This document shows positions 6,361 to 61,000 of a stretch of 64,000 nucleotides of DNA, piece after piece. The notes beneath the pieces were generated by a model, which did not search any database, was not told where the DNA came from, and saw nothing but the letters and a program-made list of their open reading frames with translations. Source of the DNA: Eledone cirrhosa (lineage: Eukaryota); NCBI GenBank assembly GCA_964016885.1, contig OZ024740.1, positions 210,986,001-211,050,000 of the forward strand, written 5' to 3'. The translations under genes were made by a program, and so were the position numbers. How positions within the stretch are numbered: position 1 is the stretch's first letter; each line of letters starts with the position of its first letter.

Positions 6361-6600
6361 CTGGTGTCAATTACAAATAAAATAGAATTTATGAGCAAGA
6401 CTGCAACGTTAGAGAGAGTGAGACAATTAGAAAGAGATAAAAGGTGTGTGCATGTGTTTGGAACTTGATATTTTCATTCAGGAGGAAAAAACAAACAGTT
6501 TTTTGGTCATTTGTATAATTATTCTAAAACAGTTTCAAATCATACGTTTTTCTGCCTTGAATATGAATACTATTTTTTATATCCTTTCAGCATAAACAGT

Positions 6601-9600
6601 GTTATAAAGGCTGCCACATAAACTAATGGACTGTGGAACAGAGTTATAAAGGCCACCACATAAACCAATGGACTGTGGAACAGAGTTATAAAGACTGCCA
6701 CATAAACCAATGGACTGTGGAACAGAGTTATAAAGACTGCCACATAAACCAATGGACTGTGGAACAGAGTTATAAAGGCTGCCACATAAACCAATGGACT
6801 GTGGAACAGAGTTATAAAGGCTGCCACATAAACTAATGGACTGTGGAACAGAGTTATAAAGGCCAGCACATAAACCAATGGACTGTGGAACAGAGTTATA
6901 AAGGCTGCCACATAAACTAATGGACTGTGGAACAGAGTTATAAAGGCTGCCACATAAACCAATGGACTGTGGAACAGAGTTATAAAGGCTGCCACATAAA
7001 CTAATGGACTGTGGAACAGAGTTATAAAGGCTGCCACATAAACTAATGGACTGTGGAACAGAGTTATAAAGGCTGCCACATAAACCAATGGACTGTGGAA
7101 CAGAGTTATAAAGGCCACCACATAAACCAATGGACTGTGGAACAGAGTTATAAAGGCTGCCACATAAACTAATGGACTGTGGAACAGAGTTATAAAGGTC
7201 ACCACATAAACCAATGGACTGTGGAACAGAGTTATAAAGGCCACCACATAAACCAATGGACTGTGGAACAGAGTTATAAAGGCCAGCACATAAACCAATG
7301 GACTGTGGAACAGAGTTATAAAGGCTGCCACATAAACTAATGGACTGTGGAACAGAGTTATAAAGGCTGCCACATAAACCAATGGACTGTGGAACAGAGT
7401 TATAAAGGTCACCACATAAACCAATGGACTGTGGAACAGAGTTATAAAGGCCACCACATAAACCAATGGACTGTGGAACAGAGTTATAAAGGCTGCCACA
7501 TAAACCAATGGACTGTGGAACAGAGTTATAAAGGCTGCCACATAAACCAATGGACTGTGGAACAGAGTTATAAAGGCCACCACATAAACCAATGGACTGT
7601 GGAACAGAGTTATAAAGGCTGCCACATAAACTAATGGACTGTGGAACAGAGTTATAAAGGCCACCACATAAACCAATGGACTGTGGAACAGAGTTATAAA
7701 GGCTGCCACATAAACCAATGGACTGTGGAACAGAGTTATAAAGGCCACCACATAAACCAATGGACTGTGGAACAGAGTTATAAAGGCTGCCACATAAACT
7801 AATGGACTGTGGAACAGAGTTATAAAGGCTGCCACATAAACTAATGGACTGTGGAACAGAGTTATAAAGGCCACCACATAAACCAATGGACTGTGGAACA
7901 GAGTTATAAAGGCCACCACATAAACCAATGGACTGTGGAACAGAGTTATAAAGGCCACCACATAAACCAATGGACTGTGGAACAGAGTTATAAAGGCCAC
8001 CACATAAACCAATGGACTGTGGAACAGAGTTATAAAGGCCTCCACATAAACTGGTGGACTGTGGAACAGAGTTATAAAGGCCACCACATAAACCAATGGA
8101 CTGTGGAACAGAGTTATAAAGGCCACCACATAAACCAATGGACTGTGGAACAGAGTTATAAAGGCTGCCACATAAACCAATGGACTGTGGAACAGAGTTA
8201 TAAAGGCCACCACATAAACCAATGGACTGTGGAACAGAGTTATAAAGGTCACCACATAAACTAATGGACTGTGGAACAGAGTTATAAAGGCCACCACATA
8301 AACCAATGGACTGTGGAACAGAGTTATAAAGGCCACCACATAAACCAATGGACTGTGGAACAGAGTTATAAAGGCTGCAACATAAACCAATGGACTGTGG
8401 AACAGAGTTATAAAGGTCACCACATAAACTAATGGACTGTGGAACAGAGTTATAAAGGCCATCACATAAACCAATGGACTGTGGAACAGAGTTATAAAGG
8501 CCACCACATAAACCAATGGACTGTGGAACAGAGTTATAAAGGCTGCCACATAAACCAATGGACTGTGGAACAGAGTTATAAAGGCCACCACATAAACCAA
8601 TGGACTGTGGAACAGAGTTATAAAGGCCACCACATAAACTAGTGGACTGTGGAACAGAGTTATAAAGGCCACCACATAAACCAATGGACTGTGGAACAGA
8701 GTTATAAAGGCCACCACATAAACCAATGGACTGTGGAACAGAGTTATAAAGGCCACCACATAAACCAATGGACTGTGGAACAGAGTTATAAAGGCTGCCA
8801 CATAAACCAATGGACTGTGGAACAGAGTTATAAAGGTCACCACATAAACTAATGGACTGTGGAACAGAGTTATAAAGGCCACCACATAAACCAATGGACT
8901 GTGGAACAGAGTTATAAAGGCCACCACATAAACCAATGGACTGTGGAACAGAGTTATAAAGGCCACAACATAAACCAATGGACTGTGGAACAGAGTTATA
9001 AAGGCTGCTACATAAACTAATGGACTATGGGACAGAGTTATAAAGGGTGCCACATAAACTAATGGACTGTGGGACAGAGTTATAAAGGGTGCCACATAAA
9101 CTAATGGACTGTGGGACAGAGTTATAAAGGGTGCCACATAAACTAATGGACTGTGGGACAGAGTTATAAAGGGTGCCACATAAACTAATGGACTGTGGGA
9201 CAGAGTTATAAAGGGTGCCACATAAACTAATGGACTATGGGACAGAGTTATAAAGGCCACCACATAAACTAATGGACTGTGGAACAGAGTTATAAAGGCT
9301 GCCACATAAACCAATGGACTGTGGAACAGAGTTATAAAGGCTGCCACATAAACCAATGGACTGTGGAACAGAGTTATAAAGGCTGCCACATAAACCAATG
9401 GACTGTGGGACAGAGTTATAAAGGCCACCACATAAACCAATGGACTGTGGAACAGAGTTATAAAGGCTGCCACATAAACCAATGGACTGTGGGACAGAGT
9501 TATAAAGGGTGCCACATAAACTAATGGACTGTGGGACAGAGTTATAAAGGTCACCACATAAACTAATGGACTGTGGAACAGAGTTATAAAGGCTGCCACA

Positions 9601-10417
9601 TACACTAATGGACTGTGGAACAGAGTTATAAAGGTCACCACATAAACTAATGGACTGTGGAACAGAGTTATAAAGGCCACCACATAAACCAATGGACTGT
9701 GGGACAGAGTTATAAAGGGTGCCACATAAACTAATGGACTGTGGGACAGAGTTATAAAGGCTGCCACATAAACCAATGGACTGTGGAACAGAGTTATAAA
9801 GGCCACCACATAAACCAATGGACTGTGGAACAGAGTTATAAAGGCTGCCACATAAACCAATGGACTGTGGAACAGAGGTAAAAAGGCCACCACATAAACT
9901 AATGGACTATGGGACAGAGTTATAAAAGCTGCCACATAAACTAGTGGACTGTGGAACAGAGTTATAAAGGCCACCACATAAACCAATGGACTGTGGAACA
10001 GAGTTATAAAGGCCACCACATAAACCAATGGACTATGGGACAGAGTTATAAAGGGTGCCACATAAACCAATGGACTGTGGAACAGAGGTAAAAAGGCCAC
10101 CACATAAACTAAAGGACTGTGGAACAGAGTTATAAAGGCTGCCACATAAACTAATGGACTGAGTTATAAAGGCTGCCACATAAACCAATGGACTGTGGAA
10201 CAGAGTTATAAAGGCTGCCACATAGACCAATGGACTGTGGAACAGAGTTATAAAGGCTGCCACATAAACTAATGGACTGTGGGACAGAGTTATAAAGGCT
10301 GCCACATAAACCAATGTACTGTGGAACAGAGTTATAAAGGCTGCCACATAAACCAATGTACTGTGGAACAGAGTTATAAAGGTCACTACATAAACCAATG
10401 TACTATGGGACAGAGTT
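6601..10417. repeat. 42-bp minisatellite (GTTATAAAGGCYRCCACATAAACYAATGGACTGTGGAACAGA)n, about 90 units
   Basis: Direct tandem repeat; an 11-bp deletion near 10160 breaks the frame. Confidence 0.97.
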
Positions 10418-11590: not shown

Positions 11591-14500
11591 TACACAAACA
11601 TTGGTATAATCAAAAGACTAACTATTGTTATTACTAACACACACATTGGTATAATCAAAAGACTAACTACTGCTACTACTAACACACACATTGGTATAAT
11701 CAAAAGACTAACTACTGCTACTACTAACACACACATTGGTATAATCAAAAGACTAACTACTGCTACTGCTAACACACACATTGGTATATTCAAAAGACTA
11801 ACTACTGCTTCTACTAACACACACATTGGTATAATCAAAAGACTAACTACTGCTACTACTAACACACACATTGGTATATTCAAAAGACTAACTACTGCTT
11901 CTACTAACACAAACATTGGTATAATCAAAAGACTAACTACTGCTTCTACTAACACACACATTGGTATAATCAAAAGACTAACTACTGCTTCTACTAACAC
12001 ACACATTGGTATATTCAAAAGACTAACTACTGCTACTACTAACACACACATTGGTATATTCAAAAGACTAACTACTGCTAACACACACATTGGTATAATC
12101 AAAAGACTAACTACTGCTTCTACTAACACACACATTGGTATATTCAAAAGACTAACTACTGCTTCTACTAACACACACATTGGTATAATCAAAAGACTAA
12201 CTACTGCTTCTACTAACACACACATTGGTATAATCAAAAGACTAACTACTGCTTCTACTAACACACACATTGGTATATTCAAAAGACTAACTACTGCTTC
12301 TACTAACACACACATTGGTATAATCAAAAGACTAACTACTGCTTCTACTAACACACACATTGGTATATTCAAAAGACTAACTACTGCTTCTACTAACACA
12401 CACATTGGTATAATCAAAAGACTAACTACTGCTTCTACTAACACACACATTGGTATAATCAAAAGACTAACTACTGCTACTACTAACACACACATTGGTA
12501 TAATCAAAAGACTAACTACTGCTACTACTAACACACACATTGGTATAATCAAAAGACTAACTACTGCTAACACACACATTGATATATTCAAAAGACTAAC
12601 TACTGCTACTACTAACACACACATTGGTATAATCAAAAGACTAACTACTGCTACTACTAACACACACATTGGTATAATCAAAAGACTAACTACTGCTACT
12701 ACTAACACACACATTGGTATAATCAAAAGACTAACTACTGCTACTACTAACACACACATTGGTATAATCAAAAGACTAACTACTACTAACACACACATTG
12801 GTATAATCAAAAGACTAACTACTGCTACTACTAACACACACATTGGTATATTCAAAAGACTAACTACTGCTACTACTAACACACACATTGGTATAATCAA
12901 AAGACTAACTACTGCTTCTACTAACACACACATTGGTATAATCAAAAGACTAACTACTGCTTCTACTAACACACACATTGGTATAATCAAAAGACTAACT
13001 ACTGCTACTACTAACACACACATTGGTATATTCAAAAGACTAACTACTGCTACTACTAACACAAACATTGGTATAATCAAAAGACTAACTACTGCTACTA
13101 CTAACACACACATTGGTATATTCAAAAGACTAACTACTGCTACTACTAACACACACATTGGTATAATCAAAAGACTAACTACTGCTTCTACTAACACACA
13201 CATTGGTATAATCAAAAGACTAACTACTGCTTCTACTAACACACACATTGGTATAATCAAAAGACTAACTACTGCTACTACTAACACACACATTGGTATA
13301 TTCAAAAGACTAACTACTGCTACTACTAACACACACATTGGTATAATCAAAAGACTAACTACTGCTACTACTAACACACACATTGGTATATTCAAAAGAC
13401 TAACTACTGCTACTACTAACACACACATTGGTATAATCAAAAGACTAACTACTGCTTCTACTAACACACACATTGGTATAATCAAAAGACTAACTACTGC
13501 TACTACTAACACACACATTGGTATATTCAAAAGACTAACTACTGCTTCTACTAACACACACATTGGTATATTCAAAAGACTAACTACTGCTTCTACTAAC
13601 ACACACATTGGTATATTCAAAAGACTAACTACTGCTACTACTAACACACACATTGGTATATTCAAAAGACTAACTACTGCTAACACACACATTTGTATAA
13701 TCAAAAGACTAACTACTGCTACTACTAACACACACATTGGTATAATCAAAAGACTAACTACTGCTTCTACTAACACACACATTGGTATAATCAAAAGACT
13801 AACTACTGCTACTACTAACACACACATTGGTATAATCAAAAGACTAACTACTGCTTCTACTAACACACACATTGGTATATTCAAAAGACTAACTACTGCT
13901 ACTACTAACACACACATTGGTATATTCAAAAGACTAACTACTGCTAACACACACATTGGTATAATCAAAAGACTAACTACTGCTACTACTAACACACACA
14001 TTGGTATAATCAAAAGACTAACTACCGCTTCTACTAACACACACATTGGTATAATCAAAAGACTAACTACTGCTACTACTAACACACACATTGGTATAAT
14101 CAAAAGACTAACTACTGCTTCTACTAACACACACATTGGTATATTCAAAAGACTAACTACTGCTTCTACTAACACACACATTGGTATATTCAAAAGACTA
14201 ACTACTGCTAACACACACATTGGTATAATCAAAAGACTAACTACTGCTACTACTAACACACACATTGGTATAATCAAAAGACTAACTACTGCTTCTACTA
14301 ACACACACATTGGTATAATCAAAAGACTAACTACTGCTACTACTAACACACACATTGGTATAATCAAAAGACTAACTACTACTAACACACACATTGGTAT
14401 AATCAAAAGACTAACTACTGCTAACACACACATTGGTATAATCAAAAGACTAACTACTGCTACTACTAACACACACATTGGTATATTCAAAAGACTAACT

Positions 14501-17183
14501 ACTGCTTCTACTAACACACACATTGGTATAATCAAAAGACTAACTACTGCTTCTACTAACACACACATTGGTATATTCAAAAGACTAACTACTGCTTCTA
14601 CTAACACACACATTGGTATAATCAAAAGACTAACTACTGCTACTACTAACACACACATTGGTATATTCAAAAGACTAACTACTGCTTCTACTAACACACA
14701 CATTGGTATATTCAAAAGACTAACTACTGCTTCTACTAACACACACATTGGTATAATCAAAAGACTAACTACTGCTACTACTAACACACACATTGGTATA
14801 TTCAAAAGACTAACTACTGCTACTACTAACACAAACATTGGTATAATCAAAAGACTAACTACTGCTACTACTAACACACACATTGGTATATTCAAAAGAC
14901 TAACTACTGCTACTACTAACACACACATTGGTATAATCAAAAGACTAACTACAGCTTCTACTAACACACACATTGGTATAATCAAAAGACTAACTACTGC
15001 TTCTACTAACACACACATTGGTATAATCAAAAGACTAACTACTGCTACTACTAACACACACATTGGTATATTCAAAAGACTAACTACTGCTACTACTAAC
15101 ACACATTGGTATAATCAAAAGACTAACTACTGCTTCTACTAACACACACATTGGTATATTCAAAAGACTAACTACTGCTACTACTAACACACACATTGGT
15201 ATAATCAAAAGACTAACTACTGCTTCTACTAACACACACATTGGTATAATCAAAAGACTAACTACTGCTACTACTAACACACACATTGGTATATTCAAAA
15301 GACTAACTACTGCTTCTACTAACACACACATTGGTATATTCAAAAGACTAACTACTGCTTCTACTAACACACACATTGGTATATTCAAAAGACTAACTAC
15401 TGCTACTACTAACACACACATTGGTATATTCAAAAGACTAACTACTGCTAACACACACATTTGTATAATCAAAAGACTAACTACTGCTACTACTAACACA
15501 CACATTGGTATAATCAAAAGACTAACTACTGCTTCTACTAACACACACATTGGTATAATCAAAAGACTAACTACTGCTACTACTAACACACACATTGGTA
15601 TAATCAAAAGACTAACTACTGCTTCTACTAACACACACATTGGTATATTCAAAAGACTAACTACTGCTACTACTAACACACACATTGGTATATTCAAAAG
15701 ACTAACTACTGCTAACACACACATTGGTATAATCAAAAGACTAACTACTGCTACTACTAACACACACATTGGTATAATCAAAAGACTAACTACTGCTTCT
15801 ACTAACACACACATTGGTATAATCAAAAGACTAACTACTGCTACTACTAACACACACATTGGTATAATCAAAAGACTAACTACTGCTTCTACTAACACAC
15901 ACATTGGTATATTCAAAAGACTAACTACTGCTAACACAAACATTGGTATAATCAAAAGACTAACTACTGCTACTACTAACACACACATTGGTATAATCAA
16001 AAGACTAACTACTGCTTCTACTAACACACACATTGGTATAATCAAAAGACTAACTACTGCTACTACTAACACACACATTGGTATAATCAAAAGACTAACT
16101 ACTACTAACACACACATTGGTATAATCAAAAGACTAACTACTGCTACTGCTAACACACACATTGGTATAATCAAAAGACTAACTACTGCTACTACTAACA
16201 CACACATTGGTATATTCAAAAGACTAACTACTGCTTCTACTAACACACACATTGGTATAATCAAAAGACTAACTACTGCTTCTACTAACACACACATTGG
16301 TATATTCAAAAGACTAACTACTGCTTCTACTAACACACACATTGGTATAATCAAAAGACTAACTACTGCTACTACTAACACACACATTGGTATATTCAAA
16401 AGACTAACTACTGCTTCTACTAACACACACATTGGTATATTCAAAAGACTAACTACTGCTACTACTAACACAAACATTGGTATAATCAAAAGACTAACTA
16501 CTGCTTCTACTAACACACACATTGGTATAATCAAAAGACTAACTACTGCTACTACTAACACAGACATTGGTATATTCAAAAGACTAACTACTGCTTCTAC
16601 TAATACACACATTGGTATAATCAAAAGACTAACTACTGCTTCTACTAACACAAACATTGGTATAATCAAAAGACTAACTACTGCTTCTACTAACACACAC
16701 ATTGGTATATTCAAAAGACTAACTACTGCTTCTACTAACACACACATTGGTATATTCAAAAGACTAACTACTGCTTCTACTAACACACACATTGGTATAA
16801 TCAAAAGACTAACTACTACTAACACACACATTGGTATAATCAAAAGACTAACTACTGCTACTACTAACACACACATTGGTATAATCAAAAGACTAACTAC
16901 TGCTACTACTAACACACACATTGGTATAATCAAAAGACTAACTACTGCTTCTACTAACACACACATTGGTATATTCAAAAGACTAACTACTGCTACTACT
17001 AACACACACATTGGTATAATCAAAAGACTAACTACTGCTTCTACTAACACACACATTGGTATAATCAAAAGACTAACTACTGCTACTACTAACACACACA
17101 TTGGTATAATCAAAAGACTAACTACTGCTACTACTAACACACACATTGGTATAATCAAAAGACTAACTACTGCTTCTACTAAC
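11591..17183. repeat. 45-bp minisatellite (AACACACACATTGGTATAWTCAAAAGACTAACTACTGCTWCTACT)n with 39-bp variants, about 125 units
   Basis: Direct tandem repeat; a 2-bp deletion near 15100 shifts the frame. Confidence 0.97.
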
Positions 17184-18734: not shown

Positions 18735-19034
18735 TTAAAGACGAATGGCAACCTCTTTTTCAATCTTTTAAGGGTCTTCACCCTACTTTATAAGCTATTT
18801 TATAACATCTCCACATATTAGCACACCACTGTTTATATTAATAATTGTTTCTACTTTTGGCACAAGGCCAGCAATTACCCAGTGCATTACTGGTACTTTA
18901 TTTTATCGACCCCGTAAAGATGAAAGGCAAAGCTAACCTCAGCGGGGTTTAAACTCAGAACTGTTTATATTAATAATGAAACCTATTTTTGAAGATATGT
19001 TAGCAGTCGTTAAAAATTAAAAAAGACAACTTAC

Positions 19035-20049
19035 CAGCATTTGATCTTAGCATGGTTCCAGTACCAGGTGCAGCAACGTTAGCTGTATTATTAACAAATT
19101 CCTTATTACAAACATGTGTATGCTCAGACAATGCAGAGTCCATATTTCCACAGGGTGGCCCACTGTTACTACTGGCTTCTCCACAACTGGTGCTACCTGA
19201 GGCAATCTTTGACTGCAGTCGGCTGAGATCGGTGAAATTCTTGATGCAAATTGGAGTAGTATGCATTGGTTGAGCTGCTAGGGCTGTAGCATTGCTCTGA
19301 TTAGTGGGGGGAGGTGCTGCTGCAGCTGTAGGGGGCATCGGCACATTTATTTGCATATTTGGCCGCATCACTGGGTATGATTGAGGAGCTGATGCATGAA
19401 CTTGGGTTGTGGAAAACTGCATTATTTGAGTGTTAGGTGCACGAGGTTGTTGGGCTGGGGCGTAGTGAGGATAGTTATGATATGGAACATACTGGCTTTG
19501 GAGTTGTGTAGCATTAGCTGTAGGACTATTTCCAGTTGGCTGTCCAATACTAATTGGTGGTCCAACATTCAAAGGTACGTTTGAAGTGGATACAGGAGCT
19601 TGACTAGGAGGTGTGGTGGGTCGATATGTTCCAGTACTATTGAAGTTATAACCTATTTGTGGGCTAGACGCAGCCATTGTATAATATTGTGGAGTTTGAG
19701 GGGTGTAGTTATTTTGTCCATAGGATGGATAACTAGATGGGCAAGTGGTATAGCCTGGTATCGCAGAATCAACTTGGCCAACAGTTGGCTGTGGGACATA
19801 ATTGGAGTTTGGATAAGCTTCAGTATTGGGTGGTGATGTGACCGACTGATATGGATAGCTTGGCACTCCTGTAATAAAGGGTTGATGATACTGGCCAACA
19901 TTAGTAGAGCCAGGTTGAGCAGCTGCTGATTGGCTATCTATAGCAACAGCAGTAGGATTCTGGCCTTGTTGTTGGCCAGATGATAGGAGAGGAACTGGAA
20001 GCATGTAGCGGAAAGCTTGTCCACTGACACCATGAGTAGTTGGGTAGCC
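19035..20049 (-). CDS. R3HDM1/R3HDM2/ARPP21: R3HDM-family large Q/P/Y/S-rich low-complexity exon, 1015 nt
   Basis: Stop-free for 338 codons inside ORF 19000..20160. Acceptor atttacag|GGC, donor GCTG|gtaagt. Confidence 0.9.
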
Positions 20050-21347
20050 CTGTAAATAAATAACATAGAATAACATTTGCACATTTTTGAAACTATGTTT
20101 AATTTTACAGGATAAAAGCTGTTTTAAGACAGAAGATAAATGATAATGATATAACCTCATTATTTGAAATAAGAATACTGGCAGTGTATGACAGGAGAAG
20201 GTTGACAGTCAATAGAATGTTTATAAAACACTCAGTAATGGAACAAACCATTCCAAGTATTGCAAAACAACAAGAGCATCCATTTCCCATATGAAGTCCA
20301 TGATGCAATAAAATAATAGCTAGGTTTTACAGGAAAGTTTAAGAGATCTGCCAAAGAGGAAATTATATCTTGATAATCATTTTCTGAATCACAGAATCTA
20401 TAAAACTAATGCTTATCTCCATAATGAGGAATACACTTCTCATTGGATATGGTGCTGTTTTATCAGATCACTTTACTTGCTAGAACAATTGAACTTCATA
20501 CAGCAAAGCAGTTGATCCCTAATCAATTCCACAACAATGTTGCTACCAACCAGTGTGATATCTAATGAGGGTTAAGTGACCTGCTATCAAACAACAATGT
20601 GTTGGTGACAAGATATAAATGACCATCCATTGCTGATATACATTGGTGAAGGATAAAGACACATGTACACATACAATGAAGTTCTGCACAGTTTCTAATA
20701 ACTAAATTCAACTCGCACGGTAATGTCAATTCAACACTATGACAGACAGAACAACATTGGTTGTGAAGTGACCTTAAGTACACAGCCATGATACATAAAC
20801 AATATAACAGTGCTAGTACCAATGTTATGCACTCAATGCAGAAACTAAAAGCTATGATAAACACACTTTCATATTTCTATAAATTTCAATTTTGAGTAGA
20901 CCATTCCTGTACAATTTTATTTCAACCCTTTTAATACCAACCCAGCCAAAACCAGCCCTGGTTCTATGAAAAAAACCATCTATTTCAAACAATTCCTATA
21001 TAAATTTATATCTTCTGGCATGATATTGTACAAGAACCATATTTTAAGTTAATATATTAGTCTAAAGTCTGTCTCATGCCAGGAGGCTCCTCAAGCTAAT
21101 GCTTTTCCCGGTTTCGTGGCATGAAGTGACCGAGAGTACAAGAGTTCCCCTGGACAGGACACCTGTCCATCGCAAGGTTAAACCCCCAGCTATTTTGCTG
21201 GTACTACTCATTCCAGCTGAGTATACTGGAGCAACGTGAAATGAAGTGTTTTGCTCAAGAACACAACATGCAACTCAATTAATTAATTGAAAGAGAGGAT
21301 ATTTGATTATAAATACAGCAATGTTAAACTAATATATTGGAGCTTAC

Positions 21348-21608: not shown

Positions 21609-23923
21609 CTGTTTGAATATTCATCAAAACAAAATGGATGTAAAACGATGATGATGAATTATAAAACATGATATATTTATCATGAGAGGTTTAAGAGATA
21701 TATATCTATACGATACAGAGTTATTTGTTGTTGCAATGTAAATATTAGGATATTATATGGTGTATATAAAGAATTATTAGACATTACATTTCGGTATAAC
21801 AAATGTCTATGTGTGGTGCCATAACACCTGAGGGAGTCATAAGGACGCTGTAGTGACATATGGCATTTCTTGGGTATTTTTCAAGCCTTGCAGAGCCCAT
21901 CTCTCCATATCTGATCACAGCAGATTTCTTCCAGAGAAGGATAGGGATTAAGAGAATGGAAGCGAGAAAGAGATATAGAGGAAAAATCGACCCCAGTACA
22001 AGACTGGTATTTTTTTTTTTTTTATCGACCTCGAATGGATGAAAGGCAAAGTTGATCTCGGCAGGATTTGAAACAAATACCACAAATTAATCTATCTGAC
22101 ATTCTCACAAATGTCTGCCTATAATAAATGTCTAGAGAATGCAATTATTCTATGGCCTATTTAGAATTTATTAATTCTAGCTAGCTACCATGTAGTAACT
22201 AGTTAATTCTAGCTAGCTATCATGTAGTAACTAGTTAATTCTAGCTAGCTACCATGTAGTAACTAGTTAATCCTAGCTAGCTATCATGTAGTAACTGGTT
22301 AATTCTAGCTAGCTATCATGTAGTAACTAGTTAAGTCTAGCTAGCTATCATGTAGTAACTAGTTAATTCTAGCTAGCTATCATGTAGTAACTGGTAAATC
22401 CTAGCTAGCTATCATGTAGTAACTGGTTAATTCTAGTGAGCTATCATGTAGTAACTGGTTAATTCTAGCTAGCTACCATGTAGTAACTAGTTAATTCTAG
22501 CTAGCTATCATGTAGTAACTGGTTAATTCTAGCTAGCTATCATGTAGTAACTGGTTAATTCTAGCTAGCTACCATGTAGTAACTAGTTAATTCTAGCTAG
22601 CTATCATGTAGTAACTGGTTAATTCTAGCTAGCTATCATGTAGTAACTGGTTAATTCTAGCTAGCTATCATGCAGTAACTAGTTAATTCTAGCTAGCTAT
22701 CATGAAGTAACTAGTTAATCCTAGCTAGCTATCATGTAGTAACTAGTTAATCCTAGCTAGCTATCATGTAGTAACTGGTTAATTCTAGCTAGCTATCATG
22801 TAGTAACTGGTTAATTCTAGCTAGCTATCATGTAGTAACTAGTTAAGTCTAGCTAGCTATCATGTAGTAACTGGTTAATTCTAGCTAGCTATCATGTAGT
22901 AACTGGTTAATTCTAGCTAGCTATCATGTAGTAACTGGTTAATCCTAGCTAGCTATCATGTAGTAACTGGTTAATTCTAGCTAGCTATCATGTAGTAACT
23001 GGTTAATTCTAGCTAGCTAACATGTAGTAACTAGTTAATTCTAGCTAGCTATCATGTAGTAACTGGTTAATTCTAGCTAGCTATCATGTAGTAACTGGTT
23101 AATTCTAGCTAGCTATCATGTAGTAACTAGTTAATTCTAGCTAGCTATCATGTAGTAACTAGTTAAGTCTAGCTAGCTATCATGTAGTAACTGGTTAATT
23201 CTAGCTAGCTATCATGTAGTAACTGGTTAATTCTAGCTAACTATCATGTAGTAACTAGTTAATTCTAGCTAGCTATCATGTAGTAACTAGTTAAGTCTAG
23301 CTATCTATCATGTAGTAACTGGTTAATTCTAGCTAGCTATCATGTAGTAACTAGTTAATTCTAGCTAGCTATCATGTAGTAACTAGTTAATTCTAGCTAG
23401 CTATCATGTAGTAACTGGTTAATTCTAGCTAGCTATCATGTAGTAACTGGTTAATTCTAGCTAGCTATCATGTAGTAACTAGTTAATTCTAGCTAGCTAT
23501 CATGTAGTAACTAGTTAATTCTAGCTAGCTATCATGTAGTAACTGGTTAATTCTAGCTAGCTATCATGTAGTAACTGGTTTTCTAGCTAGCTATCATGTA
23601 GTAACTAGTTAAGTCTAGCTATCTATCATGTAGTAACTGGTTAATTCTAGCTAGCTATCATGTAGTAACTAGTTAATTCTAGCTAGCTATCATGTAGTAA
23701 CTGGTTAATTCTAGCTATCTATCATGTAGTAACTAGTTAAGTCTAGCTATCTATCATGTAGTAACTGGTTAATTCTAGCTAGCTATCATGTAGTAACTGG
23801 TTAATCCTAGCTAGCTATCATGTAGTAACTGGTTAATTCTAGCTAGCTATCATGTAGTAACTGGTTAATTCTAGCTAGCTATCATGTAGTAACTGGTTAA
23901 TTCTAGCTAGCTATCATGTAGTA

Positions 23924-25961
23924 TGGTAGATAAAGTAGAAGAGGCACTTAGGAGTGGCAATGTAGCCAGCGTGCTAATGACGAGAACGGCCTTGGACCAG
24001 TTCTTTGACGCAAAGCACGAAGGCTGCGTTGTCAGGAGCAAAATACATGCTCCGGGAAATGAGGAAGCCAAAGCTGTTAGCTGGGCCAGAGTGACGGAGG
24101 CGAAAAGCGGCAACAAGTCCATGATTCAATATTTGAGGGACCAAGATGGACGAGAATAAGGGAGATGACATAGGCAACTTCCGGCCCATAACTCTGTTAA
24201 ACACAGAGTTACAGATTTTGGTCAAGGTGTTGGCAAAGAGGCTGGCGCTTGTCGTCAAAAACCTGGTGGGAGAAGCGCAGACATGCGCAATCCCAACCAG
24301 GTCCATACACGACAACCTCCACCTCATGCGATACATCATAGAGAGGGTAGGGTGTAAACCCAGCTTCGGTGGGGCCCTGATCAACTTGGATCAGTCTAAG
24401 GCTTTTGATAGGGTTGACCATCGTTACCTGGATGCGGTGCTCGAGGCGGCAGGCTTCGGACCTGTGTTCAGGGGCTGGATTGTTGCAATGCACAGCAGCA
24501 ACATCTGCTCAAGGGTCAAGGTGAACACCTCTCAGAGCTGTTCCATATCACGCGATCGATCTGACAGGGATGCCCTCTCTCCTCCCTTCTGTACGTACTG
24601 ACTCTCGAGCCACTACTACGGAAGTTGGAGCTATTGCAGGGCATCCCTTTGGAACCGGGACTGCGAAAAGCCGCGTCGGCCTACGCCGACAACGTGACAG
24701 TAATGGTGTCGAGCACCTCGCAAATCGGGGAGGCCGGCACCTTACTGAAGGAATATGAAAGGTTCACGGGAGCGAAGCTGAACCGGAACAAATTCGTCGG
24801 TTTGCAACTCGGAACGTGGAGAGTCAAACCGATGCCTTCCGGTGGCGTCGTCGGACGCTGGACAGAAGGACCGGTAAAGCTGTTCGGAGTCTGGTTTGGT
24901 CCGGACCTCCAGGTGGAGAAGAACTGGAACAAGATGACGGCTAAGGTGTTTGCGTTCACCCAGAAGTGGGCCGAGTGCAAACTATCCTTGACAGGTCGAG
25001 CGGAGGTGGCGAACACTTTTATAGCATCTGTCATCTACTACCGCTTGACCATCGTGCCTTGTCCAGCCAAAACGCTCACCAAAATGGAGCGCGCGCTCTT
25101 CCAATTCCTTTGGAAGAAATGAGCTCCTTTGGTGAGAAGATCCATCTGCTGCCAACACTCTTCAAACGGAGGGCTGGGAATGCTGTGGCTGACGATGCGC
25201 AAACATGCGCTCAGCCTGCGGCACCTCCACGTATTCTTCACTGGACAACTGGTGTGGGCCCCATTCGTGAGGCGAGCCTTCCCACGACTCGTCTCGCTGA
25301 CCGAGCTGCAGTCCTGGGTCAAGCAAAGACCGAGGAAAATGGGCGACTGGCACATGGAATGTGCTCAGGCGCTCACAGTCCTCTGGCAAATGGACCCAGC
25401 GATCAGTGGAGACTCCACTTTGTCATTCTATAGAGGGTTGGTCCGCAGCAAGTGCGACGACGCGCTCGGAGAAACTCTAGGCGTAGAGGAGGATGAACTG
25501 GCCAGTCTGTTCAGTAGGACCTTCCGTCCGGGACCAATGGACAACTTCCAAAAGTCCCTGGCCTGGCAGTGCTACCGAGGAGCTCTACCAGTTCGAGACA
25601 AGCTCTACAGACACGGGCGCCCGGGCAGGGACCCTTCGTAAAAGATGTCCGAGATGCGTGCGCGACAAGGAAACCGTTGCGCACGCATTTGTACACTGCC
25701 CGGGTGTTACCGACCTGTGGGGCTATGTAGAACGACTATTGAGGAAGAGAGGAAGGGAGTACTCGCTCTTGGTGCTCCTGGAGATGAAGGTTGTACATTT
25801 TTTCGGGGTGTGTACAACCCCTGTGTAACGCCTCCCCCCTATTGGGGATTTCAATTGTTATTTGTTATTTTATTAATAGTTTTATTTTCATATACCTCTA
25901 TGTAAACTCCCCATTTGTATTTGTCCCCTTCTTTTGTACCCTTGAGGCTAATAAAGAAATT
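23924..25961 (+). mobile_element. 5'-truncated, decayed Tx1-clade element (related subfamily) in the same minisatellite
   Basis: Collinear with roughly 28700-31480, but has two internal deletions, a 4-bp frameshift near 24527, premature stops (24562, 25120, 25639) and YADD>YADN. Flanked by a 12-bp TSD TATCATGTAGTA (23912-23923 and 25962-25973); ends AATAAAGAAATT. Confidence 0.95.
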
Positions 25962-26593
25962 TATCATGTAGTAACTAGTTAAGTCTAGCTAGCTATCATG
26001 TAGCAACTAGTTAATTCTAGCTAGCTATCATGTAGTAACTGGTTAATTCTAGCTAGCTATCATGTAGTAACTAGTTAATTCTAGCTAGCTATCATGTAGT
26101 AACTAGTTAATTCTAGCTAGCTATCATGTAGTAACTAGTTAAGTCTAGCTAGCTATCATGTAGTAACTGGTTAATTCTAGCTAGCTATCATGTAGTAACT
26201 GGTTAATTCTAGCTAGCTATCATGTAGTAACTAGTTAATTCTAGCTAGCTATCATGTAGTAACTAGTTAAGTCTAGCTATCTATCATGTAGTAACTGGTT
26301 AATTCTAGCTAGCTATCATGTAGTAACTAGTTAATTCTAGCTAGCTATCATGTAGTAACTAGTTAATTCTAGCTAGCTATCATGTAGTAACTGGTTAATT
26401 CTAGCTAGCTATCATGTAGTAACTGGTTAATTCTAGCTAGCTATCATGTAGTAACTAGTTAATTCTAGCTAGCTATCATGTAGTAACTAGTTAATTCTAG
26501 CTAGCTATCATGTAGTAACTGGTTAATTCTAGCTAGCTATCATGTAGTAACTGGTTAATTCTAGCTAGCTATCATGTAGTAACATCCATTCTC

Positions 26594-27748
26594 ATGAAGG
26601 ACAGGGACACAGCAGTGAAACTGTCCATCAAACCAATCACATCCACCGCATACACCTTCTACCCTACGTACATGGGTAGAAGAACACAAAAAATAAAAAT
26701 CCACACCATCCTGCCGATTATGGACATATGGTGGGTTTTGACAGGTTTTCTGGACCTGGAGGATGACATGCTGGTGTCCATGGGAAAGGCATCGGGTGAC
26801 GCGTTCAGTGGAACGAGCCTCGAACTTGTAGTTCAAATGAGGCCCGAAAGGATCGCCCAGATCCCTGAACGCGTCATACTGGATGATCTAACCTTCATCA
26901 ACATTACCGTTGAGGGTAGACGGCCCTCGTGTTACCTCTGCGGAACCAGAGGTCACCTGAGGGCTGTCTGTCCCCAACTTAATAAGAAAACCCCAATCCT
27001 GCCTACACCACCAACAACTGCACAACCAACACAATCACCACAACTACCACTACAAAAACAACCACCACAGCTCAAACCAAAACAAAACAATGTCCAACCC
27101 ATCCCCTCCACTCAAAAAACAAAAACAATTTCCAAAACACCCGTACCGCAAACACAACCCGAAAATATACCCCTCCCCTCCAACGCGGAAGATGACCCTA
27201 GTTCGTCGTCAGACGAGGAGGAGCACTTCCACACAATCAAAAGAAAAAAAAGAAAACACACCTCAGACACACAAATGAAAAAAACCCCTCCCCAAAACAT
27301 AACACTGACACCAACACAAAAGAGCTCACAACAGCAAACAAAAAACACCACACAAAAACAAAAACATGCATACACATACATAAATACAAGAAACAAAAAA
27401 CTGTTAAACATTGTGTACAACAACAATCTAATAAAAACACAAGGGCCTAACTTCACCCAGGCAGGGGATTTCCCCCACCTCAAAATGATTAAGGCCCCAC
27501 AGGACACCTATAAAACTTTAAAAAACAATTTTAAAGAGGACGTGGGTCCCCCCTGCGTCGGGCCCATTAACCGCGTCCTCCTAAAAAACTATCCCACCCC
27601 CTCCCCAAACACCCTCACAACTCCAAGCTCCCCAACCAGACAACACACTGATGCCCCCACACTTCCACAAACCACCACCCCACCCAACAACCCATCGCCC
27701 ACCCTAATGGAAATTGTGCAGCCCGATACCCGGGACGCAGAGAGGTAA
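26594..27748 (+). CDS. Tx1/L1 ORF1 (gag-like nucleic-acid-binding protein, probably N-terminally truncated)
   Basis: CX2CX4HX4C zinc knuckle (CYLCGTRGHLRAVC) after an RRM-like segment, followed by a P/T/Q/K-rich tail with an acidic patch and KRKKRK. Confidence 0.9.
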   Translation: MKDRDTAVKLSIKPITSTAYTFYPTYMGRRTQKIKIHTILPIMDIWWVLTGFLDLEDDMLVSMGKASGDAFSGTSLELVVQMRPERIAQIPERVILDDLTFINITVEGRRPSCYLCGTRGHLRAVCPQLNKKTPILPTPPTTAQPTQSPQLPLQKQPPQLKPKQNNVQPIPSTQKTKTISKTPVPQTQPENIPLPSNAEDDPSSSSDEEEHFHTIKRKKRKHTSDTQMKKTPPQNITLTPTQKSSQQQTKNTTQKQKHAYTYINTRNKKLLNIVYNNNLIKTQGPNFTQAGDFPHLKMIKAPQDTYKTLKNNFKEDVGPPCVGPINRVLLKNYPTPSPNTLTTPSSPTRQHTDAPTLPQTTTPPNNPSPTLMEIVQPDTRDAER

Positions 27749-27772
27749 GTGCCTTTTCTCTTCACCACCAAC

Positions 27773-30700
27773 ATGGCTATGCTAAGAGTAGGCTGTTTAA
27801 ATGCGCGTGGCCTGGGCTCAACTTGGAAGCAAGCAATGCTTCTAAATGACCTCAGGTCACAACGTATAGATGTGATGGTTATTTGCGAGGCTCGGATCAG
27901 CAACATGCGACAGCTGGCCCCCACCTTTGATGACTTTGAGATGCACGCATCTCTCTGTCAGCCCGGAGGTGGGGGTGGAGTTGTCGTTCTGCTGCAAAAA
28001 CATCTGGGTCTCGCAACACAGATGGTACATTTGGACCCGGAGGGTCGACTAGTGGTTCTGGACCTTGGCAGTGGTAAAGGCGGAGCGTTTAGGTTGGTAG
28101 CCGCCTACGGCCCTTTCGGGTCAATGCGGCCGGACTTCTTCCATCGTCTGGAGACTTTTCTAGGGACGTCCCGCTCCTTGCTATTAGTGGGGGACTGGAA
28201 TGGTATCCTAGATGCACGCTGGGACTACGTAGGGGCCTGCCCCGATAGAGAGGGGTGTAATAGCCTCAAAGGGTTAATCGGTCGATTTGACCTAGCCGAT
28301 AGATATCGACTAGATTTTCCGACTGCGCCAACCTGGACTTGGGCAAATCGTAGCGGATCATCTAGGTCGTACCTAGATAGGTTCTTAGTTAGAATTAAGG
28401 ATAAGGACCTTTTAAGTTGTCCAAAAATGCGCATTGTTGGCTATTCAGACCACAAATTAGTGACCTGCATGGTCAACCTTGACAGAACTCATAGACAGGG
28501 CCCCGGTTACTGGAAGCTCAACTTGTCCTTGCCGGCAAGTAGAGCCTACAGGAATCGGATTAGTACGTTAGTTAAGGAACGGTTGACTGGAGCGATCGTC
28601 AACAGCAGGTGGTGGGTATCTCTAAAGAGAGAGATTAGAGTAGTCTCGATAGAATTTAGTAAGGTTCTAGCTGCGGATAGGAATAGGAAGGAAAGGGAGC
28701 TAATAGATAGAGTAGAAGAGGCAGTTAGAAGCGGCGACGTGGCCAGAGTGCTAGCGTCGAGAACGGCTTTGAGCCAGTTTTTCGACGCGAAGCACGAAGG
28801 CTGCGTTGTCCGAAGTAAAATACGTGCTCTAGGGAACGAGGGGACCAAAGCTGTTAGCTGGGCCCGCGTGACAGAGGCCAACAGTGGAACTAAATCCACC
28901 ATCCGGTCTTTGCGAGACCTGGATGGACGGGCGATTCTTGAGCCTAAGCAGATGTGTGAGGCCTTTCAAAGGCACTTTGCCCGACTGTTCGGGAGGGGCG
29001 GGGAGCCGGTTGGGAACGTGGACTTCGGTCCATACCTCAACGGCCTGCCGCACCTCTCGGACAGGGAGGCGAAGTCCTGCGAGGAGCCGATTTCGGCCGC
29101 TGAGATAGAGGACGTGCTGAGCCAATGCGGCAAACGCAAATCCCCGGGTCTCGATGGTCTTCCTTACGAATTATATCTAGCTATGCCGGACTTGTTCCCC
29201 GATCTCCTCGAGGCGGTCTACTGCAACTGGCAACAGAACGGGAGAATTCCCTGTACTGTGACCAAGGGCGTAGTCACGCTAGTGAGGAAGGACGAGAACA
29301 AGGGGGACGAAATAAGTAACTTCAGGCCCATAACACTGCTAAATACAGAGTTACAGATTTTGGCCAAGGTGCTAGCAAAGAGGTTGGCGCTTGTCGTGGG
29401 CAACCTGGTGGGAGATGCGCAGACATGCGCTATCCCGTCCAGGTCCATCCATGACAACCTCCACCTCATGCGATACATCATAGAGAGGGTTGGGAACGAA
29501 CCCGGCTTTGGTGGGGCTCTGATCAACTTGGATCAATCTAAGGCGTTCGATAGGGTCGACTATGGTTACCTGGATGCGGTGCTAGCGGCGGCAGGCTTCG
29601 GACCCGTTTTCAGGGGCTGGATCACTGCTATGCACAGCAGCCGCATCTGCTCTAGGGTCAAGGTGAACGGCTACCTCTCGGAGCCGTTCAAAATCGCGCG
29701 GTCCATCCGACAAGGGTGCCCTCTCTCCTCCCTTCTGTATGTGTTGACTCTCGAGCCACTACTGCGGAAGTTGGAGTTGTTGCAGGGCATCCCTTTGGAA
29801 CCGGGATTGCGGAAAGCGGTGTCGGCCTACGCCGATGACGTGACAGTAATGGTGTCGACGGCCTCCGAAATCGAGGCGGTCGGCACCTTACTGGAGGAGT
29901 ACGAAAAGTTCACAGGGGCTAAGCTGAACCGGGACAAGTCGATCGGTTTGCAACTCGGCACGTGGAGGGGCAGACCGATGCCCTCCGATGGCGTCGTCGG
30001 ACGCTGGACGGAGGGCCCGGTGAAGTTGCTCGGGGTCTGGTTCGGACCGGACCTCCAGGTGGAGAAAAACTGGGCGGAGGTTACGAACAGGGTGTTTGCA
30101 CTGACCCAGAAGTGGGCCAGTTGCAAACTATCCCTGAAAGGTCGGGCGGAGGTGGCGAACACCTACATAGCGTCCGTCATCTACTACCGACTGACCGTAG
30201 TGCCCTGCCCAAGGGAAACCCTCACCAAGATGGAGCGCGCGCTCTTCCAATTCCTTTGGAAGAGGCGGGCTCCTATGGTGAGGAGATCCATCTGCTGTCA
30301 ACACCCTTCGAAAGGAGGGCTGGGGATGCCGTGGCTAATGATGCGTAAACACGCATTAAGGCTACGGCACCTCTACGTATTCCTCACCGGACAACCGGTG
30401 TGGGCCTCGTTTGTGAGACGAACCTTTCCCAGACTCGTCTCACTCACCGAGCTGCAATCCTGGGTCAAGCAAAGACCGAGAAAACTGGGCGCCTGGCACA
30501 CAGAGTGTGCCCAGGCGCTCACCGCCCTCTGGCAGGCGGATCCGGTTATCAGTGGAGACTCCACCGCAACATTCTATAGAGGGCTGGTACGCAGCAGGTG
30601 CGACGACGCCCTCGGAGAAGCCCTAGACATGGAGGAGGACGAACTGGCCAGCCTGTTCGGTAGGACATTCAGCCCGGGACCTATGGACAACTTCCAGAAG

Positions 30701-31216
30701 TCCCTGGCCTGGCAGTGCTACCGAGGGGCTTTACCCGTTCGAGAAAGGCTCTACAGACACGGGCGCCCGGGTAGGGAACCCGCCAAAAAGATCTGCCCCA
30801 GATGCGTGTGCGACGAGGAAACCGTTGCACACGCATTAGTACACTGCTCGGGCGTAGCCGATCTGTGGGGCTATGTCGAACAACTGCTGTCAAGGGTGGG
30901 ACCGATCCAGTTGACCACCGAGTCTATTGTAATGATCAAGCCGCCTCCCCCCTTCAAAGATGAAGATGAAGCAGAGGCGGTGTTTCTGTGCGTAATAGCC
31001 ATGGCGAAAGAGGTTGTATGGTGGACGCGTCTGAAAGGACTGAGGTCGGGCACCTTTCTCTCTGGCCAACAACTGGTCCGTTTCTTCCGATATCATTTCG
31101 GAAGAAGGATCAGGATGGAGAGAGAGGTGCTGCACCCCAGCCGTTTCTATGAAAGATGGGTGAAAGTGGCGAGAATGGCCCGTGTGAATGGGCCTTCACT
31201 CTACATCAGACTATAG
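27773..31216 (+). CDS. Tx1/L1 ORF2: APE endonuclease + reverse transcriptase + C-terminal CCHC zinc finger, intact
   Basis: APE motifs: CLNARGL, DVMVICE, GDWN, SYLDRF, YSDH. RT motifs: KSPGLDG, FRPITLLN, LDQSKAFDRV, QGCPLS, YADD. C-terminal CPRC..ETVAHALVHC. First ATG at 27773 in ORF 27749..31216. Confidence 0.97.
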   Translation: MAMLRVGCLNARGLGSTWKQAMLLNDLRSQRIDVMVICEARISNMRQLAPTFDDFEMHASLCQPGGGGGVVVLLQKHLGLATQMVHLDPEGRLVVLDLGSGKGGAFRLVAAYGPFGSMRPDFFHRLETFLGTSRSLLLVGDWNGILDARWDYVGACPDREGCNSLKGLIGRFDLADRYRLDFPTAPTWTWANRSGSSRSYLDRFLVRIKDKDLLSCPKMRIVGYSDHKLVTCMVNLDRTHRQGPGYWKLNLSLPASRAYRNRISTLVKERLTGAIVNSRWWVSLKREIRVVSIEFSKVLAADRNRKERELIDRVEEAVRSGDVARVLASRTALSQFFDAKHEGCVVRSKIRALGNEGTKAVSWARVTEANSGTKSTIRSLRDLDGRAILEPKQMCEAFQRHFARLFGRGGEPVGNVDFGPYLNGLPHLSDREAKSCEEPISAAEIEDVLSQCGKRKSPGLDGLPYELYLAMPDLFPDLLEAVYCNWQQNGRIPCTVTKGVVTLVRKDENKGDEISNFRPITLLNTELQILAKVLAKRLALVVGNLVGDAQTCAIPSRSIHDNLHLMRYIIERVGNEPGFGGALINLDQSKAFDRVDYGYLDAVLAAAGFGPVFRGWITAMHSSRICSRVKVNGYLSEPFKIARSIRQGCPLSSLLYVLTLEPLLRKLELLQGIPLEPGLRKAVSAYADDVTVMVSTASEIEAVGTLLEEYEKFTGAKLNRDKSIGLQLGTWRGRPMPSDGVVGRWTEGPVKLLGVWFGPDLQVEKNWAEVTNRVFALTQKWASCKLSLKGRAEVANTYIASVIYYRLTVVPCPRETLTKMERALFQFLWKRRAPMVRRSICCQHPSKGGLGMPWLMMRKHALRLRHLYVFLTGQPVWASFVRRTFPRLVSLTELQSWVKQRPRKLGAWHTECAQALTALWQADPVISGDSTATFYRGLVRSRCDDALGEALDMEEDELASLFGRTFSPGPMDNFQKSLAWQCYRGALPVRERLYRHGRPGREPAKKICPRCVCDEETVAHALVHCSGVADLWGYVEQLLSRVGPIQLTTESIVMIKPPPPFKDEDEAEAVFLCVIAMAKEVVWWTRLKGLRSGTFLSGQQLVRFFRYHFGRRIRMEREVLHPSRFYERWVKVARMARVNGPSLYIRL

Positions 31217-31883
31217 GTGAGGAAGATGAAAGACCAAGGGAGCACCCCTTCTCTGTGCTCCTGAGGAGAAGGGTTGCACACTTTTTTCGGGGGTGTGTGC
31301 GACCCCCCAAGGCGCCTCCTCTCTATTGAGGATTTTGTTAAAAATTTTATTTTTTGTTATATCTTATTTTATTTTTATATTTTGTTATTGCCTCCTCCTT
31401 ATTGAGGACGCCTTTTTGTGTAAACTCCCCCCTTTGTACTTGTCCCACTTTTGATGCCCTAGTGGCAAATAAAAGAAATATATCATGTAGTAACTAGTTA
31501 ATCCTAGCTAGCTATCATGTAGTAACTGGTTAATTCTAGCTAGCTATCATGTAGTAACTAGTTAAGTCTAGCTAGCTATCATGTAGTAACTAGTTAATTC
31601 TAGCTAGCTATCATGTAGTAACTGGTTAATTCTAGCTAGCTATCATGTAGTAACTAGTTAATTCTAGCTAGCTATCATGTAGTAACTAGTCAGCAGGTAT
31701 TACTATTTTCCACTGATATTTGATTTCATCGTAAATTCTTATTGAATGGACATATTTTACAACAAGCACTTGTACGTTTTCATGTACAAGAGTTCTATCA
31801 ACAATTCTGATTCAGATGATGATCGCGGAATTAAAGTGAAGTCTATTAAAGATTTTTCTATGCATGAGAGGGGGGAGAGAAGG

Positions 31884-59909: not shown

Positions 59910-60993
59910 GTGTGTGTGTTTAATGGCAGCTATGATGCTTCCATAGGTGGTATGCCAGTTGAGCACTCTATGTTCTTACAGAGCAGAGTGTGATATAATA
60001 TAAAACAAAAAATCAGTGATGCATCTGGACTCAATTTATTGTGTGTTACAATTGTTTCGCCAGCAGACAGCTCGAGACGCGATCATTGTGTGGATCTGCC
60101 TGATTCCAGAACTGCAGGTTCTTCGGACACTGGCAATAATTTCGGAACAAATTTTCTCACTGGGGTGTTAGCTTCAAAAAACATCTTCCTCGTTTGTCCT
60201 GCTGTTGGCTGTTGTTTTTCTACGTCATCATAAACTCTGGTCAATAGTTGCTGCCACACTGTCCATCAGCTACTCTCCGTCCGACACACTTCAATGAATT
60301 CATGTTGGGCTTGGTATTTCACAAGTCGACTCACACACACATACACACATACATATACACACACACATACACATACACACACATATGTATACATACATAT
60401 ATATATACACACACATGTATATATATGTGTGTGTATATGTATATGTATATACATATACACACACTCACATACACACACACACATGCCCACGACCATATAA
60501 CTAACAACATGGGTGTGTATATATACATGTGTGTGTGCGTGTGTGTGTATATGTATGTATGTGTGTGTGTGAGTGGACTTGTGAAATACCAAACCCAACA
60601 TGAATTCATTGAAGTGTGTCGGACGGAGAGTAGCTGATGGACAGTGTGGCAGCAACTATTGATAAGAATTTATGATGACGTAGAAAAACAACAGCCAACA
60701 GCAGGACAAACGAGGAAGATGGTTTTTTGAAGCTAACACCCCAGTGAGAAAATTTGTTCAGAAATTATTGCCAGTGTCAGAAGAACCTGCAGTTCTGGAA
60801 TCAGGTAGATCCACACAATGATCGCGTCTCGAGCTGTCTGCCAGCGAAACAATTGTAGCACACAATAAATTGAGTCCAGATGCATCACTGATTTTTCGTT
60901 TTATATTATATCACACTCTGCTCTGTAAGAACATAATGTGCTCAACTTGCATACCGCCTATGGAAGCATCATAGCTGCCATTAAACACACACA
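59910..60993. repeat. ~1.08-kb inverted repeat: two ~430-bp arms of a PLE-like 3' end/pLTR around a CA/TA microsatellite spacer
   Basis: 59910-60340 is the reverse complement of 60560-60993 with scattered mismatches. The right arm is homologous to 37142-37387. Confidence 0.9.
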
Positions 60994-61000
60994 TATATAC

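Follow-up and report, generated by a model that had tools for sequence, protein, structure and literature searches.

Organization of the locus

The window (i.e. the whole stretch of 64,000 nucleotides analysed) contains a minisatellite of 32-bp units, 2,585 bp in total, that is divided into three segments by two LINE copies, here termed E1 and E2 (Table 1). The 3' ends of both copies adjoin TATCATGTAGTAAC, at CTAGCTAGC^TATCATG, and examination of the junctions confirmed the original prediction that both lie on the + strand and end at the identical base of the 32-bp unit. Target-site duplications of 12 and 14 bp had also been proposed. The 14-bp duplication of E2 was upheld. The 12-bp duplication of E1 was seen, with a less certain length because the AACTGGT preceding the truncation point in the subfamily of E1 resembles the unit continuation AACT(A/G)GT; microhomology combined with a loss of 2 nt is a possible alternative. 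Two other long frames within the window produced no Pfam match.

Table 1. Positions in the window of the minisatellite segments and of the two LINE copies inserted in them
Feature	Position	Strand	Remarks
Minisatellite segment 1	22171..23923	+	54.8 units of 32 bp, one C^TATCA site per unit; single-locus array
E1 target-site duplication, 5' copy	23912..23923	+	12 bp; length uncertain (microhomology)
E1	23924..25961	+	Older, 5'-truncated, decayed LINE copy (part of ORF2 and 3' UTR); AATAAA at 25950-25955; 3' duplication at 25962-25973
E1 internal lesions		+	Two deletions, near 24150 and 25740; frameshifts and stops
Minisatellite segment 2	25962..26583	+	19.4 units; E1 3' duplication at start, E2 5' duplication (26570-26583) at end
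E2	26584..31480	+	Young LINE copy
E2 ORF1 remnant	26585..27748	+	387 of 593 codons, a single CCHC knuckle (zf-CCHC of Pfam at E 0.03, short of the curated cut-off)
E2 ORF2	27773..31216	+	1,147 aa, open; APE 23-227, RT 512-755 (YADD at 686), C-terminal CCHC
E2 3' UTR	31217..31480	+	AATAAA-AGAAA and two variable bases at end, without poly(A) tail
Minisatellite segment 3	31481..31690	+	6.6 units; E2 3' duplication (31481-31494) at start

Anatomy and classification of the element

Relative to a 5.7-kb full-length copy, E2 is without ~824 nt of the 5' end (i.e. the 5' UTR and ~206 codons of ORF1), a loss that probably leaves it unable to move by itself. Its ORF2 was found to be intact, as anticipated: the open frame of 1,147 aa lies in the frame of ORF1, 24 nt after the ORF1 stop, and matched Exo_endo_phos (E 1e-7), RVT_1 (E 6e-25) and zf-RVT (E 4e-5, below the cut-off) of Pfam. 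As compared to most of 38 open copies, this ORF2 exhibited nine residue differences and a two-residue insertion, none of which fell in the catalytic motifs located. E1 has decayed by frameshifts and three stops, and carries two private deletions of ~350 and ~330 nt that are missing from its subfamily mates.

The 3' end of the family has the form AATAAA..GAAA-NN, with the AATAAA 6-8 nt from the end. No A tail was present in any of 97 position-ordered ends of C1 (103 matches, from which three duplicates and three without a parsable end had been removed). The domain order of ORF2 (N-terminal APE, RT and C-terminal CCHC), 5' truncation, the fixed 3' end and a variable target-site duplication correspond to an APE non-LTR element of the L1/Tx1 type, in keeping with the anatomy originally described. 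A zinc knuckle in ORF1 and a 3' end without poly(A) are features of the Tx1 clade; both were observed, the former as a weak Pfam match (E 0.03). The element is an L1/Tx1-type LINE, and its anatomy provisionally assigns it to the Tx1 clade. Among the 120 listed of 844 protein matches, the closest named relative was a protein of Argonauta hians (66% over the RT region), which points to an octopod host; no named Tx1, Kibi or Koshi sequence was found among these 120, in the eight clusters looked up or in the Atlas.

Family size and genome-wide flanks

Genome-wide counts were obtained by sequence-pattern and protein searches. The protein search yielded 57,559 candidates, and the best-scoring 150 of these were all at least 99% identical, many having a full open ORF2. 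One pattern for the 3' UTR matched 5,207 times, and a pattern for the 3' end matched 16,381 times as compared to 0 matches for a reversed control; the latter count is a lower bound, as the pattern misses mutated ends, that of E1 included. The family is very young and large.

The sequence-specific integration and the TATC core that had been predicted were both evident in the flanks, the core forming part of the target. An NN-TAT(C/A)T flank was present at 13,925 of the 16,381 ends (85%). The commonest extension, TATCTATCT, followed 9,226 ends (56%), which bears out the fallback of the original prediction, namely that copies followed by (TATC)n would redefine the target as a microsatellite. Other flanks were TATATATAT (495 ends), TATCA, which is the window's own (64 ends, 0.4%), and TAGCT (13 ends); reversed-pattern controls for these flank counts were 0. 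In the 97 ordered ends, the first five flank bases were T in 95, A in 95, T in 96, C in 80 and T in 96, and conservation dropped afterwards. Insertions per million sites were ~11,600 for TATCTATCT, 4.5 for TATATATAT, 8.8 for TATCA and 3.4 for TAGCT, these rates being orders of magnitude only, as the baseline of 20 arbitrary 10-kb stretches (200 kb) is small and clumped (53 TATCTATCT sites). Copies were stacked in tandem: 21 of the 97 ends had a second family copy within 400 nt, and all 21 were in the same orientation.

Target motif outside microsatellites

Duplications were analysed for the young subfamilies alone, because boundary searches failed on diverged subfamilies or overran into microsatellites. 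The sample comprised 61 of the 72 young-subfamily ends at which the flank departs from the repeat after TATCT. A duplication starting at TATC was observed at 43 of these 61 ends with non-repeat flanks, several being short or inside repeats, and no duplication was detectable at the other 18. Duplication length was 5-27 bp with a median of 11 bp (37 truncated copies), and the repeat was present on both sides of truncated copies. TATC is a pre-existing target and not a 3' tail.

The base before the cut was C in 35 of the 43 rebuilt empty sites as compared to 69 of 418 baseline sites. The consensus of the rebuilt sites from -8 to -1 was TATCTATC, partly because many sites border repeats, and G at -2 occurred in two of the 43. 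The window site, TAGCTAGC^TATCA, has the -1 C and fits six of eight upstream and four of five downstream consensus positions. The -1 C was likewise present at all four further TATCA sites that showed duplications (11-15 bp), among 29 loci viewed with 1.5 kb of upstream sequence. The sampled copies have A or T as the corresponding terminal base and cannot pair there, which implies that the -1 C is recognised in the DNA itself, the endonuclease being the simplest candidate. The last two bases of the element matched the two upstream bases of the target in one of 43 cases, a scarcity that is partly by construction, since TC, the pair found most often at targets, had been left out of the search pattern. 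The target motif is C^TATCT, to which (TATC)n/(GATA)n microsatellites offer the best match.

Insertions into minisatellites

Insertions at one and the same base of a minisatellite are common in this family. Arrays with units of 12 to 55 bp were also entered at their TATC position, and identical junctions will arise wherever each repeated unit offers a single best site. Examples were a 32-bp array on C17 (five junctions representing four distinct 5' ends), a 44-bp array on C7 (two junctions) and a 24-bp array on C12 (two junctions). Minisatellites made up 13% of baseline DNA, and contained 156 of the 418 baseline sites and 19 of the 61 insertions. They are a reservoir of sites and are not favoured, their use being roughly proportional to the sites that they hold.

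The window array has received more insertions than would be expected from its core motif. An A at +5, as in the window site, occurred in one of the 97 ordered ends. By hand arithmetic from the genome-wide CTATCA rate, ~0.0035 insertions were expected in the 76 sites of the array as compared to the two observed. Arrays with two insertions were expected ~0.015 times genome-wide, likewise by hand arithmetic, a figure that undercounting of ends could raise about tenfold. The true TATCA rate is lower still, because six of 30 inspected TATCA junctions resemble mutated (TATC)n tracts. Our best guess at the reason for the local excess is the CTAG-CTAG-CTAT run, in which the 4-nt periodicity of (CTAT)n is preserved. 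With a 16-position weight matrix, the position 4 nt upstream outscored the used site, which tied for second place among 64; with a 6-position core matrix, the used site ranked first.

Origin of the two insertions

The locus is best explained by two independent insertions of an abundant L1/Tx1-type family whose insertions occupy C^TAT(C/A)T and fall for the most part within (TATC)n/(GATA)n tracts, a reading to which we assign a probability of roughly 0.85. E1 and E2 are likely to share a base because that base is the closest mimic of C^TAT(C/A)T in the minisatellite unit. The original prediction had put the chance of a match in position and strand at about 1/64, which is the wrong null; from the measured preferences of the family the chance is about 1 in 4, by hand arithmetic over the five TATCA/TAGCT positions among the 64 of the unit.

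The independence of the two insertions, and their origin from related subfamilies, had been proposed and was borne out. E1 and E2 were 84.5% identical over 1,599 nt, with a dS of 0.52, a dN of 0.095 and a dN/dS of 0.18 (602 codons; three stop-bearing codons omitted). In a tree of 87 rows, built from E1, E2 and, out of 120 fetched loci, the copies spanning 1,500 nt or more of the RT segment, E1 fell in a clade of eight (support 100/99, terminal branch 0.038) and E2 in a clade of 47 (support 100/100, terminal branch 0.002). These are two separate insertion events of different subfamilies, E1 being much older. There is next to no likelihood that a single old insertion was copied along with the array, or that (TATC)n is nothing more than a tail of the element itself. 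Copying of an insertion along with its array is seen at another locus, where L299 and L300 on C17 share one truncation point. For E1 and E2, the single-insertion and tail readings are refuted by the tree, in which each copy is closer to copies elsewhere (92-93% identity for E1 and 99.5% to the nearest fetched copy for E2) than to the other; by the dN/dS, which is far from the value of ~1 predicted for a duplicated insertion; and by the duplications in unique DNA, which begin at TATC on both sides of copies. The proposal that the family is specific for the 32-bp minisatellite or its GCTATC core, which formed the centre of the original prediction, is very improbable. One base of the array was used by two subfamilies, the two insertions exceed the average CTATCA rate (to which the CTAG-periodic context may contribute) and GC precedes the cut in three other rebuilt sites (L268, L281 and L201). 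Against this, all 64 exact matches to a 23-mer of the unit in the 3.0-Gb assembly lie inside this array, the scarcity of G at -2 applies to the rebuilt sites as a whole, and just 64 ends are followed by TATCA as compared to 9,226 by TATCTATCT. The single locus and these counts rule out the minisatellite as main target; its apparent role as a target is a by-product of the preference for C^TATCT/(TATC)n.

A different division of labour between DNA and RNA is a further alternative. A weakly specific endonuclease could nick AT-rich DNA, with priming only where a (UAUC)n stretch prolonging the RNA can pair with the 3' end of the nick, so that pairing mainly sets the site. The fall in conservation after the first five flank bases fits such a scheme, as do four junctions at which TATC is present and missing from the 5' side (L086, L121, L279 and L296), and the closeness of AATAAA to the end, which would place 3' processing in the flank. 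For R2Ol, pairing of flank-derived RNA is described in the available text of PMC6795142 as improving accuracy. Weighing against it, the -1 C lies outside any pairing open to these copies, and the cases of TATC that look untemplated are few and short. We regard pairing as the main determinant of the site as rather unlikely; DNA recognition and RNA pairing are not mutually exclusive.

Proposed mechanism of integration

Under the preferred reading of independent insertions at C^TAT(C/A)T sites, the APE endonuclease of ORF2 would cut the bottom strand opposite C^TAT, at ATA/G, and so create the nick from which reverse transcription would be primed, as in established target-primed reverse transcription. 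The transcript probably runs a few bases into the flank, because AATAAA lies so near to the end, and these flank-derived bases (UAUC) probably pair with the nicked strand; such pairing would account for a 3' junction that is exact and without a tail. A second nick, loosely placed ~5-20 nt downstream, would generate the variable duplication length. As each insertion would retain the site at its own 3' end, later copies could stack head to tail.

A further possibility, which we consider tentative and on balance unlikely, is that the RNA of the element bears pieces of the target at both ends (3' UAUC, and 5' (CUAU)n from the upstream flank of the donor), so that it seeds and lengthens GATA microsatellites as its own landing pads and ranks among the principal sources of the GATA tracts and LINE stacks of octopods. 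Of 14 full-length copies with fewer than two TATC units in the 3' flank, four (L133, L168, L175 and L270) were extended at the 5' junction by two to four CTAT units, the clearest case being L168, which lies in an unrelated 32-bp minisatellite. The remaining 10 had no extra CTAT unit, one, or an ambiguous junction. Together with the junctions whose TATC is missing from the 5' side, the extra units are at most suggestive hints of an RNA-borne target.

Relation to known elements and significance

L1 copies carry a poly(A) end and insert preferentially at TT/AAAA. Human LINE-1 ORF2p was the best solved relative of E2 ORF2 (PDB 8sxt and others; E 7.5e-48 over residues 7-857) and has the same APE-RT-CCHC order; unlike human LINE-1, the present family is without a tail and its ORF1 has a zinc knuckle. 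R2 proteins gave a weaker PDB match (E 4e-18).

A 2004 study by Kojima and Fujiwara reportedly bears on the comparison with microsatellite-targeting elements. Those described are Kibi, in (TC)n, and Koshi, in (TTC)n, of teleosts and the crocodilian Tx1-1_Crp group, in (TTCC)n/(TTTC)n (PMC4494074, PMC3812793). Like these, the present family is of the APE non-LTR type and prefers a pyrimidine-strand microsatellite, the 56% of ends followed by TATCTATCT lying far above the criterion of >20% of flanks in one repeat (PMC4494074). Unlike these, its unit is (TATC)n/(GATA)n, which is not among the targets named in the available text of PMC4494074 and PMC3812793. It also differs in having at least 16,381 ends, in tolerating isolated C^TATCT sites and minisatellites and, probably, in having an octopod host; its kinship with these elements is putative. 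Sequential insertion at one site, giving tandem copies that sandwich a duplication, is shared with crocodilian SINEU-3/Tx1-Mar, whose target is a Mariner transposon and not a simple repeat (available text of PMC4494074). In the genome of Octopus vulgaris, 421 insertions have been described for 13 L1-Tx1 families of recent activity; the main text of PMC13282606, as available, does not use the word 'target' and names none for them. No Tx1 element targeting TATC/GATA was found in the largely open-access literature searched; such a target may already have been recorded, for example in Repbase. The (TATC)n/(GATA)n repeat is an apparently unreported, new target for a known kind of microsatellite-targeting Tx1 element.

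One review (PMC3812793) describes the way in which APE elements target microsatellites as poorly understood. The window is an instructive side case and not a new system. The (TATC)n/(GATA)n target joins a short list for microsatellite-seeking LINEs, and the thousands of copies of this family, together with dozens of off-consensus sites like the window array, amount to a natural specificity profile.

Organization of E2 and other features of the window

In E2, the longer of two copies of the LINE family in the window's 32-bp minisatellite, ORF1 and ORF2 share a reading frame, with one TAA and 24 nt between them (window 27749-27772), an arrangement also present in full-length family copies. Pfam searches of two other open frames (402 and 276 codons) gave no matches. 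Neither the 42-bp nor the 45-bp consensus unit of two further large minisatellites contains TATC on either strand, and no family copies were found in these arrays when the window was searched with E2. These arrays provide a weak internal control.

Features of the window and family loci elsewhere in the assembly (G000)
Feature	Position	Strand	Size
Minisatellite	window 6595-10417		42-bp unit x 91
Minisatellite	window 11592-17183		45-bp unit x 126
Open frame	window 19003-20208	-	402 codons
Open frame	window 60929-61756	+	276 codons
L126	G000:C1:42261712-42270022		three copies
L298-L302	G000:C17:4.79-4.84 Mb		five junctions

Insertion sites of other family copies

Four different arrays with family insertions (L104, L168, L298 and the window array) have a 32-bp unit, and a short GT/TACTGTGTTAA stretch is common to the L104 and L298 units. 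At L298-L302, five family junctions were observed at one base of a 32-bp minisatellite distinct from the window array; two of the copies there have the same truncation point and probably arose by duplication of the array together with its insertion. At L126, three young copies were directly stacked at a single site, the 3' end of the previous copy being followed by an 11-20 bp duplication and then the 5' end of the next.

Two insertions with different 5' ends (L267 and L305) occupied the same base within near-identical flanks. These flanks resemble coding sequence from another repeat; the target may be another retroelement. One small subfamily (L092, L151 and L158) was flanked by TATATC rather than TATCT in all three copies, a pattern that could reflect a shift in specificity.
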